64,000 bases of DNA. Source: Vulcanimicrobiales bacterium (GTDB taxonomy: Bacteria > Vulcanimicrobiota > Vulcanimicrobiia > Vulcanimicrobiales > Vulcanimicrobiaceae). The stretch spans positions 32,001 to 96,000 of the forward strand of contig JBBRLI010000002.1 of assembly GCA_038231455.1 (NCBI GenBank), given 5' to 3'. Shown here piece after piece: positions 32,808 to 50,019 of the stretch (within the stretch, counting starts at the first letter, position 1; each line of letters opens with the position of its first letter). The notes beneath the pieces were generated by a model that worked only from the letters and a program-made list of their open reading frames with translations, had not been told where the DNA came from and did no database searches. The position numbers and the translations under genes were made by a program.

Positions 32808-35189
32808 ATTGTTGAACTGCTCGAGAATTCGCCGCTCGTCCTGATCGAATGGGACGGGCAGCTTCGCGTGTCCCGCTGGTCACCGCAAGCCGAAGCGACA
32901 TTTGGTTATGCGGAGTCGGACGTGATCGGTAAACGCGGGGTGGAGTTCGGATTTGTCCACCCGGGCGACCGTGCGGCGATCGACGAGATCGACGACGCGC
33001 TCTTCCACGGACGGACCGAACGCGTCGTAAGTTCCAATCGCAACGTTGCAGCCGACGGCCGCGTGCTGTATTGCGACTGGTATAATTCGGCCGTTTATGA
33101 TGATGCCGGCACGCTCCAAACGGTGCTCTCGCTCATCCACGACGTGACGGATCGCGTGCGCGGAGAGGCCGAACGCGCCGAACTCCTCACGCATTACCGA
33201 TTTCTCGCCGACGCCGTCCCGGAGATTCTGTGGAGTTGCCGCCCCGACGGCTGGCCCGACTATTTCAACCTCACGGCCGAACGCTATACCGGACTCAGCG
33301 ACCAGCAGATTCGTGAAAACGGCTATTACACGCTGGTTCATCCGGACGATGTCGCCGAACTTCAACTGGCCTGGGAAGCGCACGTGGACGAGCCGCGTGC
33401 GTTTGAAAATCATTATCGCTTACGCCGACACGATGGAACGTATCGCTGGCAACTCGCGCGCGCGAAGCCTCTCATCGTCGACGGCGTCGTGGTGAAGTGG
33501 TTCGGCACGTGCACCGATGTCGACGATCAGCGCAAGATCACCGACCGCAGTCTGCTGATCGCCGAGGCTTCAAACGCCCTTGCCTCCTCGCTCAACACCA
33601 AGACGCTCGCGCGCACGATCGCGCGTTTGCCGATTCCGAGTTTTGCCGATTGGTGTAAAGTCGATTTGATCGTCGAGGACGGGCGAATCCGAACGGCCGC
33701 AATCGCACATCGTGACACGATTCGCGAAGCCGGCGCACAGGCGCTTGTCGGCACGACGCATCTCGATCCGCGGGCGACGAGCGGGGTGCCGGCGGTGATG
33801 CGATCCGGTTACGCACATTTGGCCGATACGAACGACAGTGATTTTCTCGGTGAAGTGAGTACGGAGTTACGCGCGGCGTACGATGGCCTCGGGCAGCCGC
33901 ACTCGCTCATCATCGCGCCGCTGCGCGCGCGCGGCCGCACGCTTGGCACGATTTCGTTCGTGCTCGGCGACTCGGGGCGGCTTTTTACGGATGAAGACGT
34001 CTCTTTTGCCGAAGATCTCGCACTGCGTTCCGCCGTCGCGCTCGACAACGCCCAGCTCTTCGAGCGCGAACACCGTGTCGCCGATACGCTTCAGCGCGCA
34101 ATGCTCCCGACGAATTTACCCGTCGTCGACGGGATGAAATTTTCATCGGCCTACTCGCCTGCGGCGGCTGAATCCGAAGTCGGCGGCGATTGGTTCGACG
34201 CATTTCCGCTAGCCGACGGGCGGATCGCGGTCAGTATCGGAGATGTCACCGGGCACGGCCTGACGGCAGCGGTAATCATGGGCGAAGTTCGCCAGTCGAT
34301 TCGCGCATCGGCAATGGTCGATAGCAATCCCGCGCTCGTGTTGCAGCGCGCAAATCAGCTGCTTTTATTGCACGAATCCGCCTCGATCGTCACCGGGATC
34401 TTCGGTGTCGTCGATCCGAAAAAGCAGACGTTTACGTATGCAAGCGCAGGACATCCGCCGCCGCTCGTCACGCGGGACGGCGCAGTGTGGGCGCTCGAGA
34501 CGGCGGGGTTGCCGCTCGGACTCCGCGGGCCGGACGATGAAATTTCATTTACCACATACCTTGGCCCCGGTTGTATGCTCGTGCTTTATACGGATGGGCT
34601 GATCGAATTCAGTCGCGATCTCTACGCCGGTGAAGCAGCGCTGCGCGCAGCGGTCTCGGAAGAATCGCTCATGCAGCGAGACGATCCGGCTGCCTCGATC
34701 GCGCGTCGGGTTCTTGCAAAACACGCACAGTCGGATGACATCGCGATCTTAGCGGTGCGTTTCGATCCGCTTCCGACCGACCTCACGTGGCACTTGGCCA
34801 AAGGCGATATGCCTGCCGCACAGCTGTTGCGCCGGCAGATCGCGAAGCTCGTGCGCACGTATACAAGCGACCTCGAACAGATCGCCGCAAGCGAAGTCGT
34901 GGTCGGCGAATTGCTTGCGAACACCGTGGAACATGCGCCACATGGTGTGGACGTGCATCTCGACTGGCGCGATCGGTATCCGCGCCTGATCATCGGCGAT
35001 CTGGGCGAAGGCGTGCGCGCGCGGCCGATTCTGCCGACGGATCCTTTGAGCGAACGCGGCCGCGGGCAGTTCATCATCGGGCATCTCGCTCGCTCGTTTG
35101 AGATTCGCACCGACGAACATGGTCGAACGATCTACGACGTCGTTCTCAACTGCGAGCGCGAAATCGTTACGGAGTCGGCGCCAGCGTAA
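32808..35189 (+). CDS. PAS-PAS-GAF-SpoIIE (PP2C) phosphatase with C-terminal RsbW-like HATPase domain
   Basis: PAS motifs; VGGDWFD, GDVTGHG, LYTDGL, DDIA; ELLANTVEHA and GRG. Start is uncertain (see findings). Confidence 0.9.
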   Translation: MVELLENSPLVLIEWDGQLRVSRWSPQAEATFGYAESDVIGKRGVEFGFVHPGDRAAIDEIDDALFHGRTERVVSSNRNVAADGRVLYCDWYNSAVYDDAGTLQTVLSLIHDVTDRVRGEAERAELLTHYRFLADAVPEILWSCRPDGWPDYFNLTAERYTGLSDQQIRENGYYTLVHPDDVAELQLAWEAHVDEPRAFENHYRLRRHDGTYRWQLARAKPLIVDGVVVKWFGTCTDVDDQRKITDRSLLIAEASNALASSLNTKTLARTIARLPIPSFADWCKVDLIVEDGRIRTAAIAHRDTIREAGAQALVGTTHLDPRATSGVPAVMRSGYAHLADTNDSDFLGEVSTELRAAYDGLGQPHSLIIAPLRARGRTLGTISFVLGDSGRLFTDEDVSFAEDLALRSAVALDNAQLFEREHRVADTLQRAMLPTNLPVVDGMKFSSAYSPAAAESEVGGDWFDAFPLADGRIAVSIGDVTGHGLTAAVIMGEVRQSIRASAMVDSNPALVLQRANQLLLLHESASIVTGIFGVVDPKKQTFTYASAGHPPPLVTRDGAVWALETAGLPLGLRGPDDEISFTTYLGPGCMLVLYTDGLIEFSRDLYAGEAALRAAVSEESLMQRDDPAASIARRVLAKHAQSDDIAILAVRFDPLPTDLTWHLAKGDMPAAQLLRRQIAKLVRTYTSDLEQIAASEVVVGELLANTVEHAPHGVDVHLDWRDRYPRLIIGDLGEGVRARPILPTDPLSERGRGQFIIGHLARSFEIRTDEHGRTIYDVVLNCEREIVTESAPA

Positions 35190-36936
35190 CGATCGGCGCA
35201 CGCGCCTCGACGGTGTCGCCGGCTTTGACGTGAACGTTTTCGATCGTCCCGGCTTTATGGGCGCGAATTTCGTTCATCATTTTCATCGCCTCGATCACGG
35301 CGACGACCTGACCCTCGGCAACGAGCGCACCGTTTGCGGCGCTAACTTCGACGACGACGCCGTGCATCGGTGATACGACATCGTTCCCTTGCGGGGCTTG
35401 CGCTTTTCGCGTTCCGCCTTTGACGATCGATTTTGCAGCGCCGGTGGGGCGCGCGGTAGCGATGCCGGATGGGAGATCGATGAAGCGCACGCGGAAGAGC
35501 TTGTCGTTGACTTCGACGCGGATCGGTTCGCTCGGCGCGGGCGCGGCCGCGGACTCTTCGGATGGGACGTTGCCGCTAGCCGTCGTGCGCGCTGCCGCGA
35601 ACGGTTCGAGCGTTGCCGTTCCATAGCTCGCATCGAGAACGGGCGCGAAGTCGGCGAGCTCGCGCAAGAGCGAGCGCGTCGTTGGAACGCCTTCGACGAT
35701 GTATTCGTCGATAGCGCGGCGCAGACGTTCGAGCGATTCATCGCGCGTACGTCCCCAAACGATGAGTTTAGCAATCATCGAGTCGTAGTCGGGGGTGATC
35801 GCAAAACCGGTCGACGCGGCGGAGTCGACGCGCACGCCGAAACCCGCAGGCTCGCGATACGCGGTAATCGTACCGGGAGCCGGCCGGAAGTTGTGCGCGG
35901 GATCTTCGGCGTTGATGCGCACTTCGATCGAATGACCGCGAAAGTCGATCTGCGGTTGTGCGAATGTCAGCGGCCGACCGGCAGCGACGAGAATTTGCTC
36001 GCGCACAAGATCGATGCCGGAGATCATTTCGCTCACGGTGTGCTCGACTTGAATGCGCGTGTTCATCTCGAGGAAGAAGAACTCATTACCCGCGACCAGG
36101 CACTCGATCGTGCCGACACTATCGTATGCGATGGCTTTCGCCGCAGCGATGCCCGCCGCGCGTAAACCTTCGCGAACGTGATCGGAGATGAGCGCGGGCG
36201 CCTCTTCCCAAACTTTTTGATGGCGACGCTGCAGCGAACAGTCGCGCTCGCCAATATGCACGACGTTGCCGTATTTGTCGGCGAGGATCTGCAGTTCGAT
36301 GTGCTTGGGATTATCGAGATACCGTTCGGCGTAGATCGTGCCGTTGTTAAAATAGGCGGTCGCCTCACGCTGGGCGGTCGTGAACGCGGATTCGACATCC
36401 TCGAGCGTCCGTGCGACTTTGAGGCCTTTGCCGCCTCCGCCGCCCGAGGCTTTGAGAGCCAGCGGTAAACCGAACTGTGCGGCGGCCTTGCGTGCGCCGG
36501 CGCCATCGAGGATCGGTTCGGTTCCGCCCGGGACGACCGGGACGCCCGCTTTGATCATCGCTTGGCGCGCGCGGACTTTGTCGCCCATCGCATCGATTGC
36601 AGCGGGCGTCGGCCCGATCCACGTCATGCCCGCATCGATCACCGCCTGAGCGAATGACGCGTTTTCGGCGAAAAAACCGTAGCCGGGATGAATGGCATCG
36701 GCGCCGGCGCGCTTGGCGACCTCGAGAATTTTGTCGCGATTGAGATAGCTCTGCGCGGGCGGCGCCGGGCCGAGTAAATAGGCCTCGTCGGCAAGCGAGA
36801 CGTGCCGGGCGTCGCGATCGACTTCCGAGTAGACGGCGACGGTTTTGATGCCGAGTTCGCGCGCGCTGCGCATGATGCGGATCGCGATCTCGCCGCGATT
36901 CGCGACGAGCATTTTGCGAAACGGTGCCTCAGCCAC
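35167..36936 (-). CDS. Acetyl/propionyl-CoA carboxylase alpha subunit (biotin carboxylase + biotin carrier)
   Basis: ANRGEIA, HPGYGF, GGGGKG, RDCSLQRRHQK, EMNTRIQVEH; EAMKM biotinylation site. Confidence 0.95.
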   Translation of the reverse strand: MAEAPFRKMLVANRGEIAIRIMRSARELGIKTVAVYSEVDRDARHVSLADEAYLLGPAPPAQSYLNRDKILEVAKRAGADAIHPGYGFFAENASFAQAVIDAGMTWIGPTPAAIDAMGDKVRARQAMIKAGVPVVPGGTEPILDGAGARKAAAQFGLPLALKASGGGGGKGLKVARTLEDVESAFTTAQREATAYFNNGTIYAERYLDNPKHIELQILADKYGNVVHIGERDCSLQRRHQKVWEEAPALISDHVREGLRAAGIAAAKAIAYDSVGTIECLVAGNEFFFLEMNTRIQVEHTVSEMISGIDLVREQILVAAGRPLTFAQPQIDFRGHSIEVRINAEDPAHNFRPAPGTITAYREPAGFGVRVDSAASTGFAITPDYDSMIAKLIVWGRTRDESLERLRRAIDEYIVEGVPTTRSLLRELADFAPVLDASYGTATLEPFAAARTTASGNVPSEESAAAPAPSEPIRVEVNDKLFRVRFIDLPSGIATARPTGAAKSIVKGGTRKAQAPQGNDVVSPMHGVVVEVSAANGALVAEGQVVAVIEAMKMMNEIRAHKAGTIENVHVKAGDTVEARAPIVTLAPTP

Positions 36937-37123
36937 GAAGACGTCCGTGCATCGCCCAGAGCGATGTCGAGCGCGCGGCCGCACGCGTATTGGCGGCGTC
37001 GCTTGTGTGGATGCGAGCGGCGATGCGCCACGGTGCCATGCTTCGTGTTTCCTCGCGAGCGGATTGCGTTTGGAGGAGTGCGGTTGCTGCTGCGATTACC
37101 GCGGCCAGTTCATCATCGGTCAT
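36929..37123 (-). CDS. Acyl-CoA carboxylase epsilon-like (or OadG/MmdD-like) small subunit
   Basis: MTDDELAAVIAAATALL...PWRIAAR...LWAMHGR; overlaps both neighbours. Confidence 0.7.
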   Translation of the reverse strand: MTDDELAAVIAAATALLQTQSAREETRSMAPWRIAARIHTSDAANTRAAARSTSLWAMHGRLRG

Positions 37124-38532
37124 GCGATTTCGCTTGGGGTCGTGACGGTGCGTGGGGCATGCGTCTCGCGTTTGTCGATGCTGGCGACGAGCCGATCGAA
37201 TGCCGCCCACGCAAACGGCGCTTGCGCTTGCAGCCCGTACCCGAAAGCCGCAAACGTATCGACATGGGTGCCGCCTTGCACGAGGAAGAGTTGGTGAAGC
37301 GCGGATTTTCTCGCGGCGGCGATCGCACGAACGTAGGTGTGTGCGTTGTTCTCCGGGGTGATAAAGGCGTCGTGCGTTCCGGCGATCGAGACAAGTGGTT
37401 TTTCGATCGCGCCGCTATGCGCGAAACGTTTGATCGCCGTGCGTCCGGCCGCTGAGACGATGTAGTTCGCTCGATTCTCCGCAAGCGCCAAGCCGGTACC
37501 CGTGCAAGCAACGGGGAGACGCGGATTTGCATCGGGCGTGCACGGCGCCGGGCCAAACGCCGCGGTAGCCTCGGGGTCGACGAGTTGCGCGTACGCATAG
37601 ACGGTGAGGTCGGCGTAATACGGTGGGACGTTGGAATAGTATTCGCCGTAGAGCGAGCGATGTGCGTGGTCCGCTTGTACGACGTCGCGTGGAAATCCGA
37701 ACTTCACGAGTCGATCGACTAGCGTCGTGTCGCGGTACTCGCTGCGAAGATAGTCGGGCATCAGTTTGAGAAACGGCGGGAAGTAGTCGAGAAAGCTTTG
37801 CTCGGGCGACCAGTAGACGCCGGCCCATTCAACACCGCCGTCGACGAGTTCGGGATGGCGCTCGAGCAACGTGCGCACTTGCGCGCCGCCGTTCGAGAGT
37901 CCAACGGCATACGTGTGTTTTGGCGCAGCGTGATTGGCTTTGAGGACGTCTTTTGCGTGCAACACCAGGCGCCGGTAGCTTTCGTTCCAGTCTTGGATCG
38001 GCACGGGTTTTGGTTCGAGCAGACCGAGGCGAATGACGAGTCCTTTGCTTGCAAGGCCGGCTGCTTCGAAGGGGATCGGATATGCGGCACGGGGTGCGGG
38101 CGTCGCGGCCGCGGCCTCGACGACAGCGTTGTAGGGAACGCCCTTGTTGCCTGAGGCAAACGCGTAGCCGCGGGCGAGTGCGAATTCGCCCCAGATGAGA
38201 TCGTTTGCATACGCACTGCGCGTCGCGGGCGTTCCGGCAACGATGAGCGATCCGTTCCACGCATCGGGAACGCGAATCACGGAGGCGTCAGCCGGAACGT
38301 CGTTTGTGTAAATTCGGCCGGGGATCGGAGTCTTTGCGGGCGTTATCGTCGTCGGCATCAGCAGCGCTTTGGCATCGCCGGCCGGATCGAAACCGGGGCG
38401 TTTTTCCGGCAGCGGTGCATAGCCGAAACGCAGATCGGCGACATGGTCGCTCATGCTAGCAGCGATCGCGCGCGATGCCGTCAGGGTAAGTGCGCTCGCA
38501 GCGAGCGAGGCTGCGAACGTTCGGCGCTGCAC
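37120..38532 (-). CDS. Tat-exported alpha/beta hydrolase (tannase / hydroxybutyrate-oligomer hydrolase-like)
   Basis: MQRRTF twin-arginine signal; GLSNGG nucleophile; GTHDAFI; GGTHVD. Confidence 0.75.
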   Translation of the reverse strand: MQRRTFAASLAASALTLTASRAIAASMSDHVADLRFGYAPLPEKRPGFDPAGDAKALLMPTTITPAKTPIPGRIYTNDVPADASVIRVPDAWNGSLIVAGTPATRSAYANDLIWGEFALARGYAFASGNKGVPYNAVVEAAAATPAPRAAYPIPFEAAGLASKGLVIRLGLLEPKPVPIQDWNESYRRLVLHAKDVLKANHAAPKHTYAVGLSNGGAQVRTLLERHPELVDGGVEWAGVYWSPEQSFLDYFPPFLKLMPDYLRSEYRDTTLVDRLVKFGFPRDVVQADHAHRSLYGEYYSNVPPYYADLTVYAYAQLVDPEATAAFGPAPCTPDANPRLPVACTGTGLALAENRANYIVSAAGRTAIKRFAHSGAIEKPLVSIAGTHDAFITPENNAHTYVRAIAAARKSALHQLFLVQGGTHVDTFAAFGYGLQAQAPFAWAAFDRLVASIDKRETHAPRTVTTPSEIA

Positions 38533-39327
38533 TTACGAGCCGGTCTCCGCGGGTTTGGGGAACATCCCCATCACGTGATACCCGCAGTCGACGAAGTGGA
38601 TGTCGGCGGTAATCGCTTTCGAGAGATTCGAGGCAAGATAGACGGCGAGGTTGCCGATGTCATCGCCCGTGATATTGCGTTTGAGCGGCGCGACGGATTC
38701 AACCATGTCCAGCATATGCTTGAGGTCTTTGACCTGACGCGAGCTTGCGGTTTTGATCGGGCCTGCGGAAATTCCATTGACGCGAATCCCGCGGTCGCCA
38801 AGATCGAAGGCGAGGTAGCGAACGATCGATTCGAGCGCGGCTTTTGCTATGCCGGCAATATTGTAGTTCGGCACGATCGCCGTTGCGCCGTAGTACGTAA
38901 GTGCCATCACGCTAGCGTTATCGCGTAGCTGCTCGCGCAGCGCTCCCACGAGCGCGATGAGCGAGAACGACGAGATGTCCATCGCAAGCGCGAAGCCGGC
39001 GCGCGAGGTATCGTAGACTTTTCCCATCAGGTCTTCTTTGTTGACGAAGGCAATCGAGTGGACGATGCCGTCGAGTCCGCCAAGATCACGCCCGACGTTT
39101 TCCGCCAGCGTCTTGAGCTCTGCATCCGAGGTGACGTCGCACGGATAGCATGGGCCGCCGCCGAGTTCTTTGGCCAGCTTCTCGACTTCGTCTCTGAGGC
39201 GCTCGCCCTGGTAGATGAATCCCAGTTTTGCGCCTTGCTCGGCCATCGCGCGGGCGATGAACGTCGCGATGGACCAGCGATTCGCCACCCCGGTGATGAG
39301 GATGGTCTTGCCTTCTAGTAGCTTCAC
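38533..39327 (-). CDS. fabI: Enoyl-ACP reductase (NADH)
   Basis: GVANRWSIA, VHSIAF, YNIAGIAKAALE, ISAGPIKT. Confidence 0.93.
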   Translation of the reverse strand: MKLLEGKTILITGVANRWSIATFIARAMAEQGAKLGFIYQGERLRDEVEKLAKELGGGPCYPCDVTSDAELKTLAENVGRDLGGLDGIVHSIAFVNKEDLMGKVYDTSRAGFALAMDISSFSLIALVGALREQLRDNASVMALTYYGATAIVPNYNIAGIAKAALESIVRYLAFDLGDRGIRVNGISAGPIKTASSRQVKDLKHMLDMVESVAPLKRNITGDDIGNLAVYLASNLSKAITADIHFVDCGYHVMGMFPKPAETGS

Positions 39328-39337
39328 GAATTGAGTG

Positions 39338-39724
39338 TTAAGGCGTCGCTCCTGGCGATGCCTGCGCCGCACCGGTGAGGGCGCGAACGACGCGGCCCCG
39401 GCCGGTTTGGTCGAGCTCCATCACCTCCGCGACGAGCGCTCCGTCCTCGCGGCGGTAGAGAATCGTCAAGATGCCGATTCCGACGAGGGCGTCGACAAAG
39501 GTGAACCGCAGCCCCGGCGTAGCGAGGCTGCGTTCGATATGCGCGCGGAGCCGGTCGGATCCGACCAGCCAACCCGAGGGGATGCCCCAACGCGTACGCA
39601 CACCCGGTGCGCAATACCGCACATCGTCTGTATAGCAGGCGACGATCGAATTGAGGTCGCCACGATTCCAAGCCGCGCACCAATCTTCGCCGATGCGACG
39701 CGCAGCAGAGGGATCGATGTTCAT
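39338..39724 (-). CDS. SnoaL/NTF2-like family protein
   Basis: WCAAWNRGDLNSIVACYTDDV pattern. Confidence 0.8.
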   Translation of the reverse strand: MNIDPSAARRIGEDWCAAWNRGDLNSIVACYTDDVRYCAPGVRTRWGIPSGWLVGSDRLRAHIERSLATPGLRFTFVDALVGIGILTILYRREDGALVAEVMELDQTGRGRVVRALTGAAQASPGATP

Positions 39725-39966: not shown

Positions 39967-41541
39967 CTAGAGCGGAATGTTGCCGTGTTTGCGATGGGGG
40001 CGCTCGACGCGTTTGTTTGCGAGCATCGTAAGGGCGCGGGACACGGCGCGGCGCGTTTGGCTTGCGGCGATCACGTCGTCGACGTATCCGCGCTGCGCTG
40101 CAATGAACGGGTTGGCGAAACGCTCGCTGTACTCGGCGACGAGTTCGTCGGTTTTCGCTTGCGGATCGAGCGCATCGGCGATGTCGCGGCGGAAGATCGT
40201 CTTCACGGCCCCTGCCGCGCCCATGACCGCGATTTCGGCCGTCGGCCAGGCAAGGTTCACGTCGGCCCGGATGTGCTTTGAGGCCATGACGTCATACGCG
40301 CCGCCGTACGCTTTGCGCGTGATGATCGTAATCTTGGGGACGGTCGCCTCGGCGAAGGCGTAGAGCAGCTTTGCACCGTGCTTGATAATGCCGCCGTACT
40401 CTTGCGTCGTGCCGGGTAGGAAGCCGGGGACATCGACGAAGGTCAGCAGCGGGATGTTGAATGCATCGCAAAAGCGCACGAACCGCGCGGCCTTTACGGA
40501 TGAATCGATGTCGAGCACGCCGGCGAGAAACTTCGGCTGATTCGCGACGATGCCGACCGACTTGCCGCCGACGCGACCGAAGCCAATCACGATGTTTTGC
40601 GCGAAAAGCGGCGCAATCTCAAAGAAGTCGCCGTCATCGAGTACGGGGCAGACGGCATCGAGAATATCATAAGGTTTGTTCGGCGAGTCGGGGATCACGC
40701 CGTCGAGTTCGCCCGCAACGCGCAGCGGATCGTCGTCGCTCGGCACTAGCGGCGGATCTTCCAGATTATTCTGCGGAATGAACGAGAGCAAACGTCGTGT
40801 TTGTTCGTTCATGTCGTCTTCGTCGGTTGCGGTGAGATGTGCGACGCCGGACTTGGTGGCGTGCGTCATCGCGCCGCCGAGTTCTTCGAAGCTCACATCC
40901 TCGCCGGTGACCGTCTTGATGATTTCGGGTCCGGTGATGAACATCTGCGAGATTTTCTCGACCATGATCGTAAAGTCGGTAATCGCGGGCGAATAGACCG
41001 CGCCACCCGCACACGGTCCGGCGATCAGCGAAAGCTGCGGAACGACACCGCTGGCCTGCACGTTGCGCCAGAAAATTTCTGCATACCCGCCGAGGCTCAC
41101 GACGCCTTCCTGGATGCGCGCTCCACCCGAATCGTTGATGCCAATCATCGGCGAACCGGTGCGCACGGCTAGGTCCATGACTTTGCAAATTTTCTCAGCG
41201 AAGACTTCGCCCAGCGATCCGCCGAGCACGGTGAAATCTTGCGAGAAGAGGAAGACCTGGCGCCCGTCGATCGTGGCGTGACCGGTGACGACACCGTCGC
41301 CTAAGAACGGCCGTTCATCGAGTCCAAATGCGGTGGATCGGTGGACCGCAAAGCGATCCATCTCAACAAACGAGTCGGGATCGACCAGCGCATCGACACG
41401 CTCGCGCGCCGTCCGCTTCCCACGTTCGCGCTGGCGGTCGTTTGCCGCCTCGCCCGCGGGGGCGAGGGATTCCGTGCGCATGGCGTCCAGGCGCGCGTAG
41501 GCTTTATCGTGCGGCGAGAGCGGCTCGGTTGGCGTCGACAT
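39967..41541 (-). CDS. pccB: Acyl-CoA carboxylase carboxyltransferase (beta) subunit
   Basis: GDGVVTG, DSGGARIQEG, GPCAGGAVY, DVPGFLPG, RKAYGGAY, KHGNIPL. Confidence 0.93.
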   Translation of the reverse strand: MSTPTEPLSPHDKAYARLDAMRTESLAPAGEAANDRQRERGKRTARERVDALVDPDSFVEMDRFAVHRSTAFGLDERPFLGDGVVTGHATIDGRQVFLFSQDFTVLGGSLGEVFAEKICKVMDLAVRTGSPMIGINDSGGARIQEGVVSLGGYAEIFWRNVQASGVVPQLSLIAGPCAGGAVYSPAITDFTIMVEKISQMFITGPEIIKTVTGEDVSFEELGGAMTHATKSGVAHLTATDEDDMNEQTRRLLSFIPQNNLEDPPLVPSDDDPLRVAGELDGVIPDSPNKPYDILDAVCPVLDDGDFFEIAPLFAQNIVIGFGRVGGKSVGIVANQPKFLAGVLDIDSSVKAARFVRFCDAFNIPLLTFVDVPGFLPGTTQEYGGIIKHGAKLLYAFAEATVPKITIITRKAYGGAYDVMASKHIRADVNLAWPTAEIAVMGAAGAVKTIFRRDIADALDPQAKTDELVAEYSERFANPFIAAQRGYVDDVIAASQTRRAVSRALTMLANKRVERPHRKHGNIPL

Positions 41542-41586: not shown

Positions 41587-43365
41587 CTACGGTTTGCGCG
41601 CCACTTCGGCCGCCCGTTGGAGTTTCTCAATCTGGTCTTTGCCAATGAACCGGGACATCGTCTGGTAAACCGGTCGCGTCGCGTCGACAAAGGCGGCGCG
41701 CTCGGCCGGAGTAAGCGAGACGATCTCGAGCGATTTACCGAGTTCGGCAAGAGTCGTCTTGTCGAGGGTCTCGGCCTCGCGGCGTTCCCATGCGATCGTC
41801 TCAGCGATGGCGTTGTCGACGAGTGGGCGGTTCTCGCCTAGGGCGTCGTACCAGGCGCCCGACGCTACGACGACCTGCGGGGTGTACATGTGCGCGGTGA
41901 GCGTTAGATATTTTTGAACGTCTTGCAGCTTGAATGCGGCGATCGTCGCTAGGGGATTGTGCTGGCCGTCGATCTCGCCTGCTTGGAGCGCGGCGCGCAA
42001 ACGCGGAAGCGCGATTGGGCGAGCGATCGTATCGAGCGCATCGCCGATAGCAATGTGCACCGGCGACTCGACGACGCGGATGCGAAGGCGACGGATGTCG
42101 GCCGGCGTGCGAATGGCGCGCACGTTGTTCGTCATGTGCCGAAATCCGTTCTCGAAGAAACCAAGACCGACGAGTCCGATGCGGCGCAGCGAGTCGAGCA
42201 GTTCGCGACCATATGGACCATCGAGCAGCGCGGCGACGTGTCGGCGGTCGTCGAGCAAATACGGCATCTCGAGCAGTTGAAAGGCCGGCAACACGTTGCC
42301 GACGATCGCGCAGCCGATCGAGGCCAACGTGGTCTCGCCGCGGCGCACGGCTGAGAGGATGCCGATCTCGCCTTTGCCGCCCGACGAATCGCCCGGGCGC
42401 GCTTCGACACGCGTGCTCGGCAGAGCAGATCCGAGTCGGCGTGCAAGCTCGGTGACGCTACGTCCCGCGAGCGACTCGGCCGCAAGACCCGTCGAAACGA
42501 TAATGGGCCCGGTTGCGATCCGCGAACCGGTGTCCATCTCGATCAAGTGGTAGTCGATCGCGTTGATCGCGAGGATCGCCTCTGCCGCATCGGCCACGTG
42601 CGAGCGCGACGTGCGCATCAGCTCGGCGGCGCTGCGTCCAAACTGATTTGCGCGCGCCGCGTGATCGGACGTCGTATTTCTCACACCGTCGAAGGCTTCT
42701 TCGGTCGACCGGACGGCGGTGCCGATTTCGCCGAGTGCAGCGCGCGCACTCGCCGCTGCGCGATCGCCCGCTGCAACGGCCTCATCGGCCGAATCGGCAA
42801 CGGCCGTTGTTTTCTCGGTGCCGCGTCGCACGTCGGCGAGCAGATTCTCCATCGTCTTGGTTGCATCGCGCGTCGAGTCGGCGAGCTTGCGCACTTCGCT
42901 TGCAACGACCGCGAAGCCGCGACCGTGTTCGCCCGCGCGTGCGGCTTCGATTGCGGCGTTGAGGGCGAGCAAATTCGTGCGCGCGGAGACTTCGCCGACG
43001 AACGCGACGATCTCATCGATGCGCCCGAGCGTTTCGACGAGTTCGAGCATCGTTTCGCGCGCGGAGCGCGAACCCGAGGCGAGCATCTCGACGCTCTCGA
43101 CAAGTTTTTCGATCGACGCGCCGGCGGAATCGACGCGTTCGCGCGCGGCGTGCGCGCGCGTTGCAGCATCGCGAATCTCTTCGAGCGATTTCCCTAAGTC
43201 GTTTGCCATCGATTCGGATACGTCGGCGATCTCTTGCAAGCCGACGCTCTGCGTGGCGGAATTATCGGAGATGCGGCGCGAGGTCTCGCGCAGGCGGGAG
43301 GCAGCAAAACGCATGCTCTCCGTAAGAGCACCGTGTTCAAGAGCGCTATTTCCCGTCGACTCCAT
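41587..43365 (-). CDS. Soluble methyl-accepting chemotaxis protein fused to a TRAP-type DctP solute-binding domain
   Basis: [33 protein letters not shown] (MCP hairpin), then [34 protein letters not shown] and [10 protein letters not shown] (DctP). No TM helix or signal peptide. Confidence 0.88.
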
Positions 43366-43445
43366 CGATGAAATCTTCGGCCAACCCGCCAACACCCCCG
43401 CCAACCGGCGGCATCTCTTTACCATGAGGCGAATAGGCTGGCTCG

Positions 43446-43973
43446 ATGATTGATCCGCAACTTCTGGTTGCTGCACGCGGGGGTGATCCGAATTCAATGG
43501 ACGCACTCCTGCGTGAGTTGTGGCCGGATGCCTTCCGGATCAGTTTTTTGCTGCTTCGCGATCGCGCGGCGGCAGAAGATTCAGCCCAGGATGCTCTCGC
43601 TCGGGTGTGGGCGACCCTCGACGATCTGAATGACCTTGCGGCCTTTCCCGCGTGGTTTTACCGACTCGTTGTGAACGGTGCGAAAATGCAGCAGCGAGGC
43701 GCTGGGCGTCGGCGGGTACGCGAAGAAACGTCCGTATCGATCGAGGTATCCAGAGATGAAGACGACCGTATTGACGTCAACTCCGCGATCCGCTCGCTGC
43801 CGGAGTGGCTCCGCGTTCCGGTCGTGCTGCACTACTAGGCCGGCCTAACGAGTGCCGAAATTGGTCGAATTCTCGACGCGCCAGCGGCAACGATTCGTTT
43901 TCGACTCTCGCTCGCTCGACGTCAACTTCGCCCGAAACTCGACGTTGAATCTACGATTCAGGTGGCTTTATGA
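43446..43973 (+). pseudogene. ECF sigma-70 factor interrupted by an in-frame TAG (43836-43838)
   Basis: Region 2 (AEDSAQD, FPAWFYRL). Past the TAG the same frame gives AGLTSAEIGRILDAPAATIRFRLSLARRQLR (region 4 HTH) and ends at TGA 43971-43973, overlapping the next ATG. Confidence 0.85.
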
Positions 43974-44725
43974 ACGACAACCAAATTGGATCACAAATTT
44001 GTCGCAACGTTGCATCGATCGTGCCCCCAGCATATGCTGCTAGCGAAGTCGCACGCAAGCATCTCGCGATGAAGTCTCTGCCTTTGAGCCCTCAAAAGCG
44101 CGAGCGGAAGCAATTTATTCTGGCGGGGCTGGCTTCGCTCTTGGTCATCGCGCCGGCTGGAGCGTATGCGACGCATGCCCAGAAGGTCGATGACACGTTG
44201 CGCGGCGCGATGCGATCCTTCGGAATCCAAATGGTCGGCCCGATATCATCGAACGACCCGCAGGCGATCAGTCTTGCAGATGCTGAATCGCGAGCTCCAT
44301 TCAAGGTTCTTGTGCCGAAAATGGCAGCGAGCGCGCGGCTCGAGCACATCTACCGGAGCAATGGAGAGCACGTCGGCGATACGGTCGAGCTCCTGTATCG
44401 CCTTAACGGCACACCGGGACGTCCGCTTATTAATTTCCAGGAATCAGCGAAACCGTTGACCGTTCCGAAGCACGATCCGCGGGCTAATCGCGAGTTTGAA
44501 CTCTATGGTGAATACTATTACGCGGAACACCTTATGGACAAACAAAAGCCAGAACTTAAACTCATCCGTCCTGCGATCTGGGAGGCTGGCTCGACAAGTA
44601 TTCGCGTTTTCAATGGTGATAAGATCTCAGCGGCTGAGTTGAACGCTATTCGGCGATCGATGAACGCGCGCGAGATCGTAGCAGCACGTCAAATGCTAAC
44701 GATCGTACCGAAGCACGATCGTTAG
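43970..44725 (+). CDS. Putative anti-sigma factor (single TM, extracytoplasmic C-terminus)
   Basis: Coupled to the ECF gene; short N-terminus, TM FILAGLASLLVIAPAGAYA, and SLADAESRAPFKVLVP segment. Confidence 0.65.
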   Translation: MNDNQIGSQICRNVASIVPPAYAASEVARKHLAMKSLPLSPQKRERKQFILAGLASLLVIAPAGAYATHAQKVDDTLRGAMRSFGIQMVGPISSNDPQAISLADAESRAPFKVLVPKMAASARLEHIYRSNGEHVGDTVELLYRLNGTPGRPLINFQESAKPLTVPKHDPRANREFELYGEYYYAEHLMDKQKPELKLIRPAIWEAGSTSIRVFNGDKISAAELNAIRRSMNAREIVAARQMLTIVPKHDR

Positions 44726-45091: not shown

Positions 45092-45661
45092 CTAGGTGTT
45101 CGATTGGTTCCAGGCAGCGGCCCGGGCAAGGTCGGCGGGGGAGTCGACGTCCATGATCGCGCCAACGTCGTCGATCGGCATCGCGTGGATCACGAGGCGC
45201 TGGTCGCGGCGCAGTTCGCGTAAGGTATCGCCATCGGCGACGCCGCCGAGTAAAGCGCGTGCGCGCGGCCCGAAGACGACCGGATGGGCCGGGCGGCCGT
45301 TGTGTTCGGGTGAGACGACATCGACGCTCGGGTTATAGCAAGCAACGACCCGGTCGACGAGCGCCTGCGTGACATAGGGTAAGTCGGCTAATAAAACAGC
45401 GATGGCTGCATCCGCGGGGATGCAACCATCGGCGAGTTTGAGCGAGTACGTCATCCCGCGTTCGGGTTCCGTATTGATGATGACGCGGCGCTTGGTCGAC
45501 GCGGCGACGTGTAAGGCGATCTCGTGGCTTGCAACGACGATGCTCGGCGCATCCCCGCACGCATCGAGGGCGCGCGCGATCAGCGTTCGCCCATCGAAGG
45601 TGGCGAGGAGTTTTGCCGAACCGAAGCGTCGCGCTGCGCCCGCGGCGAGCACGACGCGCAC
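45092..45661 (-). CDS. mocA: Molybdenum cofactor cytidylyltransferase-like nucleotidyltransferase
   Basis: [33 protein letters not shown]. Confidence 0.82.
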
Positions 45662-45665
45662 GATC

Positions 45666-47810
45666 TCAGGCAGTGAAGCCGTGCCGCACGAACGGAAGAC
45701 TCCGCACGCGCGTTCCTGTTGCCGCAAAGATGGCGTTGGCAACCGCCGGAGCGATCGGCGGCGTGCCGGGTTCGCCAACGCCGCCGGGGCTTTCGGTATT
45801 CTGGACGATCTGCACGTCCATGTGCGGTGCTTCGGCCAGATGCACCATCGGATAGTCATAGAAGTTGTTCTGCGCGACGCGTCCTTTATCGATTGTGATC
45901 TCGCCGTAGAGCGCGGCGGTCAGACCGTAGATCATCGCGCTCTGCATTTGCGCTTCGACGGTGTTCGGATTGACGTATGTGCCGCAGTCGACGACGCATG
46001 CGATCCGGTGGACGCGAAGCTTTTTCTTGGCATCGACGGAGACCTCGGCGACTTCAGCGACGATGGTGCCGAACGATTCGTGCAGCGCGATCCCGCGTCC
46101 GTGACCTTTGGCAAGCGGCTTGCCCCAATCGCCGAGTTTTGCGGCCATCTCAAGCACGTTGAGATGGCGTGCTTCTTTGGCGAGCAGCGGCCGGCGGAAT
46201 TCGACGGCGTCTTTGCCCGCGGCGTGTGCCATCTCGTCCATGAAGCTCTCGAAGAAGAAGCCGTTCTGCGAATTGCCGACCGAGCGCCAGAAGAAGACCG
46301 GCACGGCGAAATTCTTCATCACGGTATCGACGGTGAAGTTCGGAATCGCGTACTTCTTATCGGCGCAGCCTTCGACCGAGAAACTATCGGGTTTGTCGGG
46401 CGGGGGCGGCGGGAATCCGAGCTGGGGATTTGAGACGAGCAGCGAGGGGGTGACGATGCGCTGTTGCCAAGCAACGAGATTGCCGCTCGCATCGAGTCCG
46501 CCTTTGAGCTGGGTGAGCGAGGTCGGACGGAACGTGTCGTGTTGAATATCTTCTTCGCGGGACCATACCAGTTTGACCGGCTTGCCGATCATCGTCGAGA
46601 TTTGGATCGCTTCGGCCGCAAAGTCGAGGTTGAAGCGCCGACCGAAACCGCCGCCCAAATAGGTCGTGTGAATTTTGATCGCGCTCGGCGGTAAACCGGT
46701 CATTTTCGCCGCGAGGCCCGCGAGGGGGCCCGGAGCTTGCGAGGGTGCCCAGACTTCGCACGATGTTTTCGTGACCGACGCCGTGCAGTTCATCGGTTCC
46801 ATCGTTGCGTGCGCGAGATACGGCGCGTAATATTCCGCAGTCACGACTTTGCTGGCCGTTTTAAGCGTGCCGTCGGCATCGCCGACGGTCGTTGCTATGA
46901 CGGGTTTTTCGTTCATACCGGCGCGCAGGGTCGTTTCGATTTTCGCGCTACTCAGGGTCGCGTCGCCGCCGGTGTAGCTGATTTTCAGCGCTTCGACCGC
47001 TTTTTTGGCACGGTAATAGCGGTCGGAAACGACAACGGCAGCCGTCTTCATGTTCAGCACCTGATGCGGGCCTTTGAAACCCTTGATCGGGGTGTCATCG
47101 ATGCTCGCGATCGTCGAACCGAACACCGGCGCGTGGCGAATCGCCGCATACACCATCCCCGGCACTTTGACGTCGATCCCAAATCCGGCTTTGCCCTGGA
47201 CTTTGGCGGAGGTGTCAACGCGTGGGACGGACTTTCCGATGATCGTCCACGCTTCACGCGGTTTGAGTTCGACTTTTTCCGGCGGCGGAATCGTCGCCGC
47301 CGCACCCGCAAGCGAACCGTATGTAGCGCTGCGTTTACTCGCGTCGTGATAGACCATCGACTTTGCCGTGCGCAGTTCGTTTGCGGGCACGTTCCACTGC
47401 GTGGCGGCGGCGCCGACGAGCATGGCACGGGCACTTGCGCCGGCTTGACGCAGCGGCATGAAGAAGCCGCGAATTGCCGATGACCCACCCGTTGCCATCG
47501 TCTGGAACGGCGGGTTGTTGTAGGCCTTATCGACCTGCGGTGCATCGACGATGACGCGAGCCCAGTCGGCGTCGAGTTCTTCTGCGACCAGCATTGGCAG
47601 CGAGGTCATGACGCCTTGACCCATTTCCGACTGCGGTGCGTATATGGAGATCGTGTTGTCGGGCGAGATCTTGATCCATGCGCCGATCGGCGTGGACGTC
47701 ATTGCGGCTTCGGCGCGGCGTGCGGTAAATGGAAGCGAGACATCGAGGAGTAGGCCGCCGCCGGCGATAGCCGTTGCGCGTAAAAAAGACGATCGATCCA
47801 TCATCTTCAT
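45666..47810 (-). CDS. Xanthine dehydrogenase family molybdopterin-binding subunit (isoquinoline 1-oxidoreductase beta-like)
   Basis: Tat-like leader [37 protein letters not shown]. Confidence 0.92.
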
Positions 47811-48259
47811 GCGTTCGCCGCCCGATGGATCGCCTTGCGAATGCGGCTATAGGTGCCGCAGCGGCACACGTTGGTGACGTTCTCATCGATCTGTGCATCG
47901 GTTGGTTTGGGATGTTTTTTCAAAAGTGCCGCCGTTGCCATGATGAAGCCGGGCTGGCAGTAACCGCACTGCGGTACTTCTTCAGCGATCCAGGCTTCTT
48001 GAATCTTTGTGAGATGCCCATCCGCAGGCGGCAGACCCTCGATCGTGGTGATCGATTTGCCTTTGACTTGATCGAGCGTCACGGAGCACGAACGCACGGC
48101 CTCGCCGTTGACGTGCACGGTGCACGCGCCGCAAAGTGCAACGCCGCAACCGAATTTCGTTCCGGTGTAGCCAACGGTATCGCGAATCACCCACAGCAGC
48201 GGGGTGTCGCCCTCATCATCGACGCTGAATTTTTTCTTATTGACGGTCAGTTCGGTCAT
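47807..48259 (-). CDS. (2Fe-2S)-binding small subunit
   Basis: [30 protein letters not shown]. Confidence 0.95.
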
Positions 48260-48278
48260 AACGCCCCCTTGGCTAAAC

Positions 48279-49394
48279 CTACGAGGTGCTCCGCTGCACG
48301 AGCGGGGTTTCTTCCTGTCGGTGGAGCGCGCGCGATCCGCCGGTGAGACGCCCGCCGCTACGATCGTGGCGCAAGGCGATGATTTCGGCTGCGATCGAGA
48401 TCGCGGTTTCTTCGGGTGTGCGTCCGCCAAGATCTAATCCCACGGGTGATGCGAGTCGTGCGAGTTCGGTTTGGGTAAGGCCCGCTGCGCGGAGTTGCGC
48501 GACGCGTTTTGCCTGCGTTGACCGGCTGCCCATCGCACCGACGTAGATCGCTGGCGAGCGGAGCGCGTTGACGAGCAGTGGGATATCGAATTTTTCTTCG
48601 TGCGTGAGGACCACGCAAATCGAATCCGAACCGAGTGGGTTCGCCTCAAGATAGGAGTCGGGCCACTGCACGATGATTTCATCGGCATCGGGGAAACGCT
48701 CGCGCGTGGCAAACGCCGGACGCGCATCGACGACCGTCACTCGGTAACCGAGCATCGTGCCAAGACGCGCGAGTGGGCGCGCGAAATCGACGGCGCCTGC
48801 CAGCACCATGCGCGCGCGCGGACCGAAGGTACGAACGAAGATCGCGGCCTCGGTGCCGAGCGGTTCGCCACGATCGCCGTAGTGACGGCGTTCCACGTTG
48901 CCGCTTTCCGTTCGCGCATCGAGTTCGGCGGCGACGGCGTAATCCAGCCCCGGCGAGCCGAGCGTTCCACGCCGGGCACCCGCATCGATGATGAGCCGGT
49001 TGCCGATCCCCGCCGGATCCAGACGGATCGCAACGGCAAGAGGCGTCTCGTTTTCCAGCGCGCGCGCAACGTCGTCGAAAAAGCCGTCCACGCGCTCGAT
49101 GTAGACTTCGAGTTCACCACCACACGTGAGACCGACGGAGAACGGATCGCCGTCGTTTGCCGTATAGCGCAGTAGTTTGGCCGCGCCGCTTGCGATCACG
49201 CCCATTGCCTCATCGACGACGGCCCCGTCGACGCAGCCGCCCGAGAGCGACCCCGCAAATTCACCGTGTTCGTTGACGGCGAGTAATGCACCAAGTTCGC
49301 GTGGCGACGAACCACCGATGCCCACGATCGTCGCGGTAGCAACGGCATCGCCGCGCGAACGCCAGCGCGCGATGTGCGGAATGACCTCACGCAT
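48279..49394 (-). CDS. xdhC: XdhC/CoxI family Moco insertion chaperone
   Basis: [40 protein letters not shown]. Confidence 0.92.
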
Positions 49395-50019
49395 CGGCGA
49401 GTCCGCGAACACCGAAGTCCGGCACCTTACGCGCGAGGCGTTTGGCGAGAATCGAGAAGACCGGAAAGAGCATGTAGGGGACAAAGAGGAAGCGGACGTC
49501 TATTCCCGCGACGATCGCCGCGCTAAAGAACACCCCGGCGAAAAAGACAACCTGCAAGAAACGTCCCCACGCGCGCTGACGGAATGCGACATCAAAGCTG
49601 TCCCAGCGCAGGCGGAGTCCGCGATACATCGTGATGGCATTCGCGGCGGAGATCAGCCCCGAGGCTGTCGCGTACAAGCTATTCGCGAACGGGTCGGTCA
49701 TGAACTTAAACCAGATCTGCAGCAGATACGGGAAGAGCGCGACGAGTGCGAGCTTCACGAACGTCAGCACGATGTTGAAACGGTCGGGAAAGAAATAGTA
49801 GGCGAAGATGTTGTGCTGATAGCCCCAAAACATCGAGACGAGTGCAAAAGCAAAGGCGAATCCGATCAGCCCAAGCGGACTCGTGAAAATTTCCGAGGCA
49901 TGGTCTTTGGGTATGACGAGCTGAACGCCCGTAATCGACAAGCTCAAGCCAAAGACGATGTCGCTGAATGATTCGAGTCGTCGCGTGAAATGCGCGTCCG
50001 ATTCTTTTTTGGTCAGCAT
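49387..50019 (-). CDS. TMEM175 family potassium channel
   Basis: RLESFSD (RxxxFSD) motif and about six TM helices. Confidence 0.8.
   Translation of the reverse strand: MLTKKESDAHFTRRLESFSDIVFGLSLSITGVQLVIPKDHASEIFTSPLGLIGFAFAFALVSMFWGYQHNIFAYYFFPDRFNIVLTFVKLALVALFPYLLQIWFKFMTDPFANSLYATASGLISAANAITMYRGLRLRWDSFDVAFRQRAWGRFLQVVFFAGVFFSAAIVAGIDVRFLFVPYMLFPVFSILAKRLARKVPDFGVRGLADA

Follow-up and report, generated by a model that had tools for sequence, protein, structure and literature searches.

We have analysed a 64,000-nucleotide stretch of DNA from a Vulcanimicrobiales bacterium (contig JBBRLI010000002.1, positions 32,001 to 96,000; hereafter the window), in which one gene raises the question of what a solute-binding domain of the DctP type, annotated in databases as the binding protein of a tripartite ATP-independent periplasmic (TRAP) transporter, is doing behind the signalling hairpin of a methyl-accepting chemotaxis protein (MCP). 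A preliminary description of the sequence had proposed that a transporter binding protein is reused here as an intracellular organic-acid sensor for chemotaxis. This is also the best explanation of the data presented below, and we consider it probable that the 592-residue product is a chemoreceptor that resides in the cytoplasm and responds to an intracellular carboxylate. The MCP is soluble, the DctP domain is complete, the carboxylate-binding arginine is kept, and the genome holds a set of Che and flagellar genes; the accompanying suggestion of a tie to acyl-CoA carboxylation, by contrast, is not supported. The features of the gene, in window coordinates and all on the minus strand, are as follows.

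41587..43365, minus strand: whole gene, MCP hairpin followed by DctP domain, 592 residues and a TAG stop (translation, Pfam)
42529..43350, minus strand: MCP signalling hairpin, residues 6–279, predicted by AlphaFold2 as helix 6–143, turn 144–148 and helix 149–279 (also Pfam MCPsignal)
42880..42975, minus strand: hairpin tip, residues 131–162, mean column conservation 0.89–0.96 over 34 sequences, the presumed CheA/CheW contact region
42505..42528, minus strand: 8-residue linker, residues 280–287, predicted by AlphaFold2 to lead from the C-terminal helix of the hairpin to the first DctP strand; bridged by an independent contig
41596..42504, minus strand: complete TRAP DctP-type solute-binding fold, residues 288–590 (AlphaFold2, Foldseek, VIA, phmmer)
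42076..42078, minus strand: codon of Arg430 (in LRIRV), at the position of the carboxylate-binding arginine of TRAP binding proteins (role described in passages of PMC4646407)
41956..41958, minus strand: codon of Asn470 (in QHNP), 40 residues past Arg430, aligned with the N of QENP in relatives from the PDB

Domain organisation and predicted structure

Translation of the minus strand from an ATG at 43365 to a TAG at 41587–41589 meets no internal stop, and the uninterrupted frame of 592 residues reported earlier is confirmed. The plus-strand reading of the same coordinates is full of stops and was rejected, which places the gene on the minus strand. The frame remains open further upstream as far as a GTG at 43506, corresponding to 639 residues, and contains an additional ATG at 43425. 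In an alignment of proteins with the same architecture, however, the homologues start either at the same methionine or 12–13 residues before it, so that the choice of ATG 43365 appears reasonable.

Pfam assigns MCPsignal (PF00015) to residues 104–249 (E = 6.9e-33, 114.3 bits against a cut-off of 34.6) and DctP (PF03480) to residues 322–570 (E = 5.1e-57, 193.8 bits against a cut-off of 23.4). Among the NCBIfam models, TRAP_S1 scores 136 bits against a cut-off of 50, many MCP equivalogs match partially, and TIGR00787 reaches 151.6 bits, under its cut-off of 175. Only one MCPsignal match is present in the protein according to Pfam, which also finds no CZB domain after the hairpin; DctP occupies that place instead.

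AlphaFold2 was supplied with an alignment of the 592-residue protein and 33 homologues of the same architecture. The resulting model, with a mean predicted local distance difference test score (pLDDT) of 85.7, consists of a hairpin and a DctP fold joined by a continuous helix–linker–strand connection, in agreement with the order of domains given by Pfam and in the preliminary description. The hairpin aligns without gaps to TM1143 of Thermotoga maritima (2ch7/3ja6), residues 32–250 corresponding to 41–259. Its tip is canonical and nearly invariant in the 34 sequences. Midway along the arms, conservation is lower than in either the first part of the N-terminal helix (residues 21–40) or the last part of the C-terminal helix (residues 241–279).

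The C-terminal part models as a complete DctP fold, as anticipated from the sequence. Comparison with the DctP-type protein of PDB entry 7bbr using VIA-align gives a Z-score of 40.4 and a root-mean-square deviation (rmsd) of 1.6 Å for 302 of 310 residues; some 50 other entries for TRAP binding proteins give Z-scores of 36–40, and the target template-modelling scores obtained for such proteins with Foldseek are 0.90–0.93. The best solved relatives by sequence are 4p47 (phmmer, 1.6e-46), 4pdh and 4nq8.

There is no transmembrane helix or signal peptide in the 592-residue protein, a further point on which the first reading stands: the highest mean Kyte–Doolittle hydropathy over 19 residues is 1.74, and this maximum falls within the DctP fold. 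The DctP domain itself, which begins at residue 288 behind the cytoplasmic hairpin, is preceded by neither a signal peptide nor a lipobox. Because there is no membrane segment, because the hairpin must meet CheA and CheW in the cytoplasm, and because the linker is just 8 residues long, the DctP domain is placed in the cytoplasm.

The putative ligand site

Arg430 is aligned to the arginine of the lkiR/lkmR motif in TRAP binding proteins of the PDB, and the QHNP motif is aligned to their QENP. The spacing of 40 residues between Arg430 and Asn470 is presumably that of Arg-147 and Asn-187 in SiaP. Both residues had been noted as retained, and both are indeed present in this protein; across the family, the arginine is constant, being found in 34 of 34 proteins with the hairpin–DctP architecture and, at the equivalent position, in 15 of 15 longer relatives described below, whereas the asparagine varies. 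According to passages of Fischer et al. (PMC4646407), 96.8% of DctP-family proteins have an arginine here, and it serves as a selectivity filter for carboxylates.

As to the nature of the carboxylate, entry 7bbr is titled sugar acid binding protein DctPAm, and relatives are described in passages of PMC11668362 as binding pantoate, erythronate or 2-keto-3-deoxy-D-gluconate. Sequence identity to the solved TRAP relatives is 29–32%, and at about 30% identity the closest of them offer only a hint that the ligand may belong to the small hydroxy-monocarboxylates or sugar acids.

A family of cytoplasmic DctP fusions

A search of a database of 5.8 billion proteins was made, and the best 120 clusters were taken as the homologue set. 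PF00015 and PF03480 occur together in 50 of these clusters, so that homologues with the architecture first read from this gene are abundant. The 50 clusters comprise 33 short forms (581–617 residues, 38–92% identical to the query), 14 long forms (839–898 residues) and 3 forms with a HAMP domain in addition (709–725 residues); the full-length frame is kept down to 38% identity. Together with other fusions considered below, the following architectures can be distinguished.

Short form: hairpin–DctP, the architecture of the 592-residue protein
Long form: hairpin–DctP–hairpin, found in an 898-residue protein encoded in the same genome about 46 kb away
Membrane-anchored form: two N-terminal transmembrane helices, then (HAMP-)MCP–DctP, in Pelosinus; Sulfuricaulis-named proteins, 677–684 residues
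MarR–DctP: one-component regulators of 463–516 residues, 6 proteins (Pfam)

The distribution of the first two forms was examined in a sample of 201 genomes from the phylum, with 6 candidates scored per genome, so that the counts are lower bounds. Full-length short-form matches were obtained at 8 or more loci in at least 6 genomes, and long-form matches in at least about 19 genomes. All of these genomes belong to the family of the window's source, bar one in the same order. The other genome of the same genus carries an orthologue 91% identical to the 592-residue protein, and Pfam confirmed the long-form architecture in 4 genomes. Source names attached to the homologues in the databases (Candidatus Velthaea, Baltobacteraceae, Eremiobacteraeota) correspond to the phylum Vulcanimicrobiota, formerly Eremiobacterota or WPS-2. 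One short-form homologue bears the acidobacterial name Candidatus Sulfotelmatobacter; the genome to which it probably belongs is placed in the window's family, and the label is probably inconsistent.

The long forms are well conserved, with a mean column identity of 74% over 15 sequences and with both the arginine and the QENP motif invariant. Their representative in the host genome lies outside the window.

C2:119475–121736, minus strand: 898-residue soluble paralogue, DctP (301–578) between two complete MCP hairpins

The AlphaFold2 model of this paralogue is mediocre (pLDDT 71.5, dropping under 50 in places within DctP). In the remaining two architectures, as in the short form, the DctP domain is C-terminal.

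L056:971–2401 (genome G164) and L057:980–2530 (genome G011), minus strand; also proteins P0131, P0133, P0134 and P0147: MarR–DctP regulators, with an N-terminal MarR winged helix and a C-terminal DctP domain
P0052 and P0053 (Pelosinus), P0185 and P0218 (Sulfuricaulis-named): membrane-anchored MCP–DctP, with almost no periplasmic loop and a cytoplasmic DctP domain at the end

The MarR–DctP regulators are named TRAP binding proteins in the databases, and none is found among the DctP matches of the host genome, which number 3 in all.

The recurrence of the fusion decides a doubt that attaches to any unusual gene in a draft genome, here one of 106 contigs, namely that an error in assembly or in the reading frame had run two genes together, or that an exported DctP was mis-called. 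The same fusion occurs in 47 database clusters and many independent genomes, and the modelled chain passes from helix through linker to strand without a break. Moreover, the continuity across the domain junction, which the preliminary description had singled out for checking, is reproduced in an independently assembled contig from a public run: it spans 42262–42804 with zero differences and zero gaps and bridges 42505–42528. The run is probably that of the source sample, and for this reason the support that the contig lends is weak. It is the one DNA run found to contain the stretch, and no RNA run containing it was found. Overall, we regard an artefact as effectively refuted.

A search with the DctP domain only, against 1.84 billion representatives, returned 10,952 matches at E ≤ 0.001. 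The nearest of these are all fused forms; next come periplasmic proteins of 320–350 residues at 30–40% identity. A tree was calculated from 142 DctP domains, comprising all 71 non-canonical ones, the 70 best-scoring canonical ones and the canonical DctP of the host genome itself, with 46 further canonical rows left out. In this tree, which is midpoint-rooted only, the short, long and MarR forms make up one clade with a Shimodaira–Hasegawa-like approximate likelihood ratio test (SH-aLRT) support of 98. Two rows of canonical length inside the clade are fragments, one being labelled partial and the other clustering with a 492-residue member. The Sulfuricaulis group is sister to the clade, and the Pelosinus proteins are nested apart, among periplasmic DctPs, with a support of 100.

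The tree is consistent with a single recruitment in the phylum followed by domain shuffling, and with at least one independent fusion elsewhere; by its topology, the Pelosinus fusion is of independent origin. The occurrence of the same DctP clade on MarR domains points to a role as a sensor that is independent of transport.

Signalling and transport genes in the host genome

The host genome (3.71 Mb, 93.7% complete) contains a canonical TRAP system, with a 364-residue DctP and DctQM, on contig C5. This is the only DctM match in the genome and, as had been stated, DctQM genes are absent from the window; none adjoins the gene at any of the homologue loci examined. Contig C9 encodes CheA (a 741-residue frame) and CheW (170 residues). 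CheR and CheB are also encoded, and there are 5 flagellin-N matches above the cut-off; the sole cultured member of the phylum is described, in passages of PMC9758169, as being without flagella.

Of 12 MCP genes, 9 have predicted transmembrane segments and extend for 202–230 residues past the tip motif. The three soluble MCPs are the 592-residue protein, the 898-residue long form and an MCP of 866 residues with two signalling domains.

C1:63817–66417, plus strand: 866-residue soluble MCP with tandem signalling domains, whose tip motifs lie at residues 187 and 498; its two hairpins recall DosM

No Pfam family was matched by the C-terminal 200 or so residues of the last of these. In the soluble DctP receptors, about 143–146 helical residues follow the motif, the hairpins of the short and long forms being matched in length.

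Several of these observations, taken with the details of the sequence, weigh against a chemoreceptor for carboxylates. The hairpin is shorter than in the 9 transmembrane MCPs (about 143 against 202–230 residues past the tip motif). The genome, at 93.7% completeness, yielded a single CheA and a single CheW. The methylation motif [ASTG]xx[EQ][EQ]xx[ASTG], the consensus from work on Escherichia coli, has no match in the hairpin, although it may not suit this lineage; EE or QE pairs occur in the hairpin at residues 44, 62 and 222 only. Finally, the pocket is non-standard, since the glutamate of QENP is replaced by histidine in the 592-residue protein and the asparagine varies among the short forms (HNP, SNS, SMP, HSP, ASP, QNP, DNP and others). 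This last variation has a second aspect: as some genomes also carry two short-form paralogues, it suggests that specificities have diversified.

The want of recognisable methylation sites by the E. coli-type consensus, the length of the hairpin unlike that of the transmembrane MCPs, and the location of the gene outside any che cluster might also be accommodated if the protein were an MCP-like regulator acting outside the flagellar CheA pathway, on gene expression or some other output, or if it were a decaying, non-functional fusion. We think either very improbable in view of the nearly invariant, canonical tip, the conservation of a full-length frame down to 38% identity, and the presence in the genome of one complete Che set together with flagellins.

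A different account of the DctP domain is suggested by the other soluble MCPs. It might be a structural or protein-interaction module, either spacing, cross-linking or localising soluble receptors in a cytoplasmic array, in the manner of DosM, the scaffold of the sandwiched F9 array in Vibrio cholerae, or docking to another protein. The genome does possess a hairpin–DctP–hairpin paralogue and a tandem-hairpin MCP, and the hairpins of the short and long forms are equal in length; DosM-type receptors, according to passages of PMC7534058, span two baseplates and require single-hairpin partners. An invariant arginine in 34 short and 15 long forms is nevertheless hard to explain without ligand binding, and scaffolding makes no sense for the members of the same clade that sit on MarR DNA-binding domains. 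The long form, furthermore, is missing from 4 of the 5 other genomes with a short form. A purely structural role is in our judgement unlikely. The possibility that the short form depends on the long form was considered as well and rejected, as just 1 of these 5 genomes has both.

Proposed mechanism of signalling

If the 592-residue protein is a cytoplasmic carboxylate receptor, as we favour, the model allows a path for the signal to be proposed. By analogy with all MCPs, the hairpin (residues 6–279) would pair with that of a second chain to give a four-helix bundle, and the conserved tip of the hairpin would dock to CheW and CheA. The DctP ‘Venus-flytrap’ (residues 288–590) would then be situated at the end of the bundle distal to the tip, where other receptors hold their sensor or HAMP domains. 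An intracellular carboxylate, bound by way of Arg430, would draw the two lobes together, and this closure may alter the packing of the distal helices at residues 21–40 and 241–279; the elevated conservation of these two segments fits a coupling element. A change in packing, running down the bundle, would modulate CheA and, through it, flagellar rotation, the outcome being a metabolism-linked, or ‘internal’, taxis.

We can also envisage, tentatively and with more doubt than conviction, a wider scheme in which the cytoplasmic DctP domains form a hitherto unrecognised family of modules that sense metabolites inside the cell, taken over a single time from a TRAP binding protein of the periplasm in the Vulcanimicrobiota (Eremiobacterota) and then shuffled among single-hairpin receptors, double-hairpin receptors and MarR regulators. 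In the host genome, the single- and double-hairpin DctP receptors, with their hairpins of equal length, might co-assemble in a sandwiched cytoplasmic array like that of DosM, with the flytraps in its mid-plane, and such an array might read several internal organic acids.

Comparison with known systems

The preliminary description held that the sensors of MCPs normally lie N-terminal to the signalling domain. This requires qualification, in that soluble MCPs with the sensor at the C-terminal end are already on record. One of them is TlpD of Helicobacter pylori, which passages of PMC13001251 describe as a soluble MCP whose sensor, a CZB domain, is C-terminal to the hairpin as it is here. The two differ in that CZB is a zinc-binding four-helix domain of about 65 residues, compared with a DctP flytrap of about 300, and in that TlpD responds to zinc or redox state, compared with a presumed organic acid for the 592-residue protein.

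The fold is held in common with the TRAP binding proteins (SiaP, DctPAm 7bbr, 4pdh, 4nq8, 4p47), with Z-scores of 38–40 and rmsd values of 1.6–1.9 Å over about 300 residues, and their carboxylate-binding arginine, Arg-147 of SiaP, is conserved as Arg430. Unlike them, the 592-residue protein has neither a signal peptide nor neighbouring DctQM genes; its DctP domain, being joined to the end of a cytoplasmic signalling domain, is in no position to hand substrate to a transporter from the periplasmic side.

In indirect chemotaxis, as described in passages of PMC8050422, a binding protein of the transporter type gives a receptor its specificity, which we presume to be the case here too. There, however, the binding protein is a separate, periplasmic molecule that docks to the receptor, whereas here it is fused and cytoplasmic; in the passages of that article on DctP and TRAP proteins, SiaP and TarP are named only as free binding proteins.

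The closest comparisons are within the family itself. The 898-residue long form has a DctP domain of the same clade, hairpins of the same length and a place in the same genome; the short form differs in having one hairpin rather than two, and is present also in genomes that lack the long form. DosM has two hairpins that span two baseplates (passages of PMC7534058), and the 592-residue protein, with one hairpin, cannot do so. The MarR–DctP regulators carry a DctP domain of the same cytoplasmic clade, again C-terminal, and their output is a winged-helix DNA-binding domain rather than an MCP hairpin.

Soluble MCPs with C-terminal sensors, and separate periplasmic binding proteins that signal to chemoreceptors, are thus already known. 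We found no description of an MCP–DctP fusion in searches of the literature on chemoreceptor ligand-binding domains, on cytoplasmic chemoreceptors, on chemotaxis in Eremiobacterota or on the two Pfam domains together; relative to the literature found, what is new is a TRAP DctP as a presumed fused sensor inside the cell, in the short as in the long form. The MarR relatives and the Pelosinus and Sulfuricaulis fusions add to this. The database names seen for the fusions almost all refer to a TRAP or DctP transporter, and one only also mentions an MCP. The DctP family, annotated everywhere as TRAP transporter substrate-binding protein, appears to have a cytoplasmic signalling branch, made up of the MCP and MarR fusions.

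How bacterial taxis is coupled to internal metabolite pools is an open question, and to our knowledge the ligands identified for cytoplasmic chemoreceptors are very few. A soluble MCP carrying a crystallisable, carboxylate-specific and well-understood flytrap would be a tractable model of internal metabolite taxis and, equally, of signal entry through the C-terminal helix of a hairpin. It would also extend the little that is known about how members of this phylum, widespread but almost uncultured, behave.

Genes surrounding the receptor

Downstream of the receptor gene lie the following genes.

39967..41541, minus strand: acyl-CoA carboxyltransferase of the PccB/AccD type (Carboxyl_trans, E = 3e-193), 45 nucleotides downstream and co-directional
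38533–39372: FabI, downstream of the carboxyltransferase
37120–38532: alpha/beta hydrolase, downstream of FabI
35167–36984: biotin carboxylase and biotin carboxyl carrier protein (BCCP), downstream of the hydrolase

The gap of 45 nucleotides to a co-directional pccB-type gene, whose start is at 41541, was correctly described at the outset. No terminator-like site was found between the two genes, and it is therefore possible that they are co-transcribed. As a special case of the carboxylate receptor, the ligand might then be a carboxylate connected with acyl-CoA carboxylation (malonate, methylmalonate or propionate, for instance). The arrangement is retained in the genome of the same genus (G201). 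Such synteny is to be expected from recent common descent at 91% identity, and this is the only other genome in which the adjacency of pccB, fabI and accA is kept. At all 7 of the other short-form loci, in 5 genomes, pccB, fabI, accA and the hydrolase are absent within about 8 kb; the neighbours there are all different, and include an ATP-binding cassette (ABC) binding protein, a purine permease, an aldehyde dehydrogenase, an FAD oxidoreductase, a GGDEF protein, malate synthase and an acyl-CoA synthetase. The carboxyltransferase, FabI and the biotin carboxylase–BCCP pair, moreover, look like housekeeping fatty-acid synthesis. With the linkage kept only within the genus and no neighbours shared by the other loci, we judge it to be lineage-specific and to say nothing about the ligand; the tie to acyl-CoA carboxylation that had been read into it is not borne out, and we give a ligand of this kind very little credence. 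The use of conserved neighbours as a clue to the ligand was rejected more generally, given that the 7 short-form and 3 long-form loci all differ.

On the other side of the receptor gene, upstream and divergent, is an open reading frame of 251 residues (43970–44725, plus strand) with no match in Pfam or NCBIfam. Beyond it lies a run of genes for an enzyme of the molybdenum hydroxylase type and for the maturation of that enzyme.

45092–49484, minus strand: molybdenum hydroxylase-type run, comprising a MobA-like NTP transferase, a MoCoBD large subunit, a 2Fe-2S subunit and XdhC

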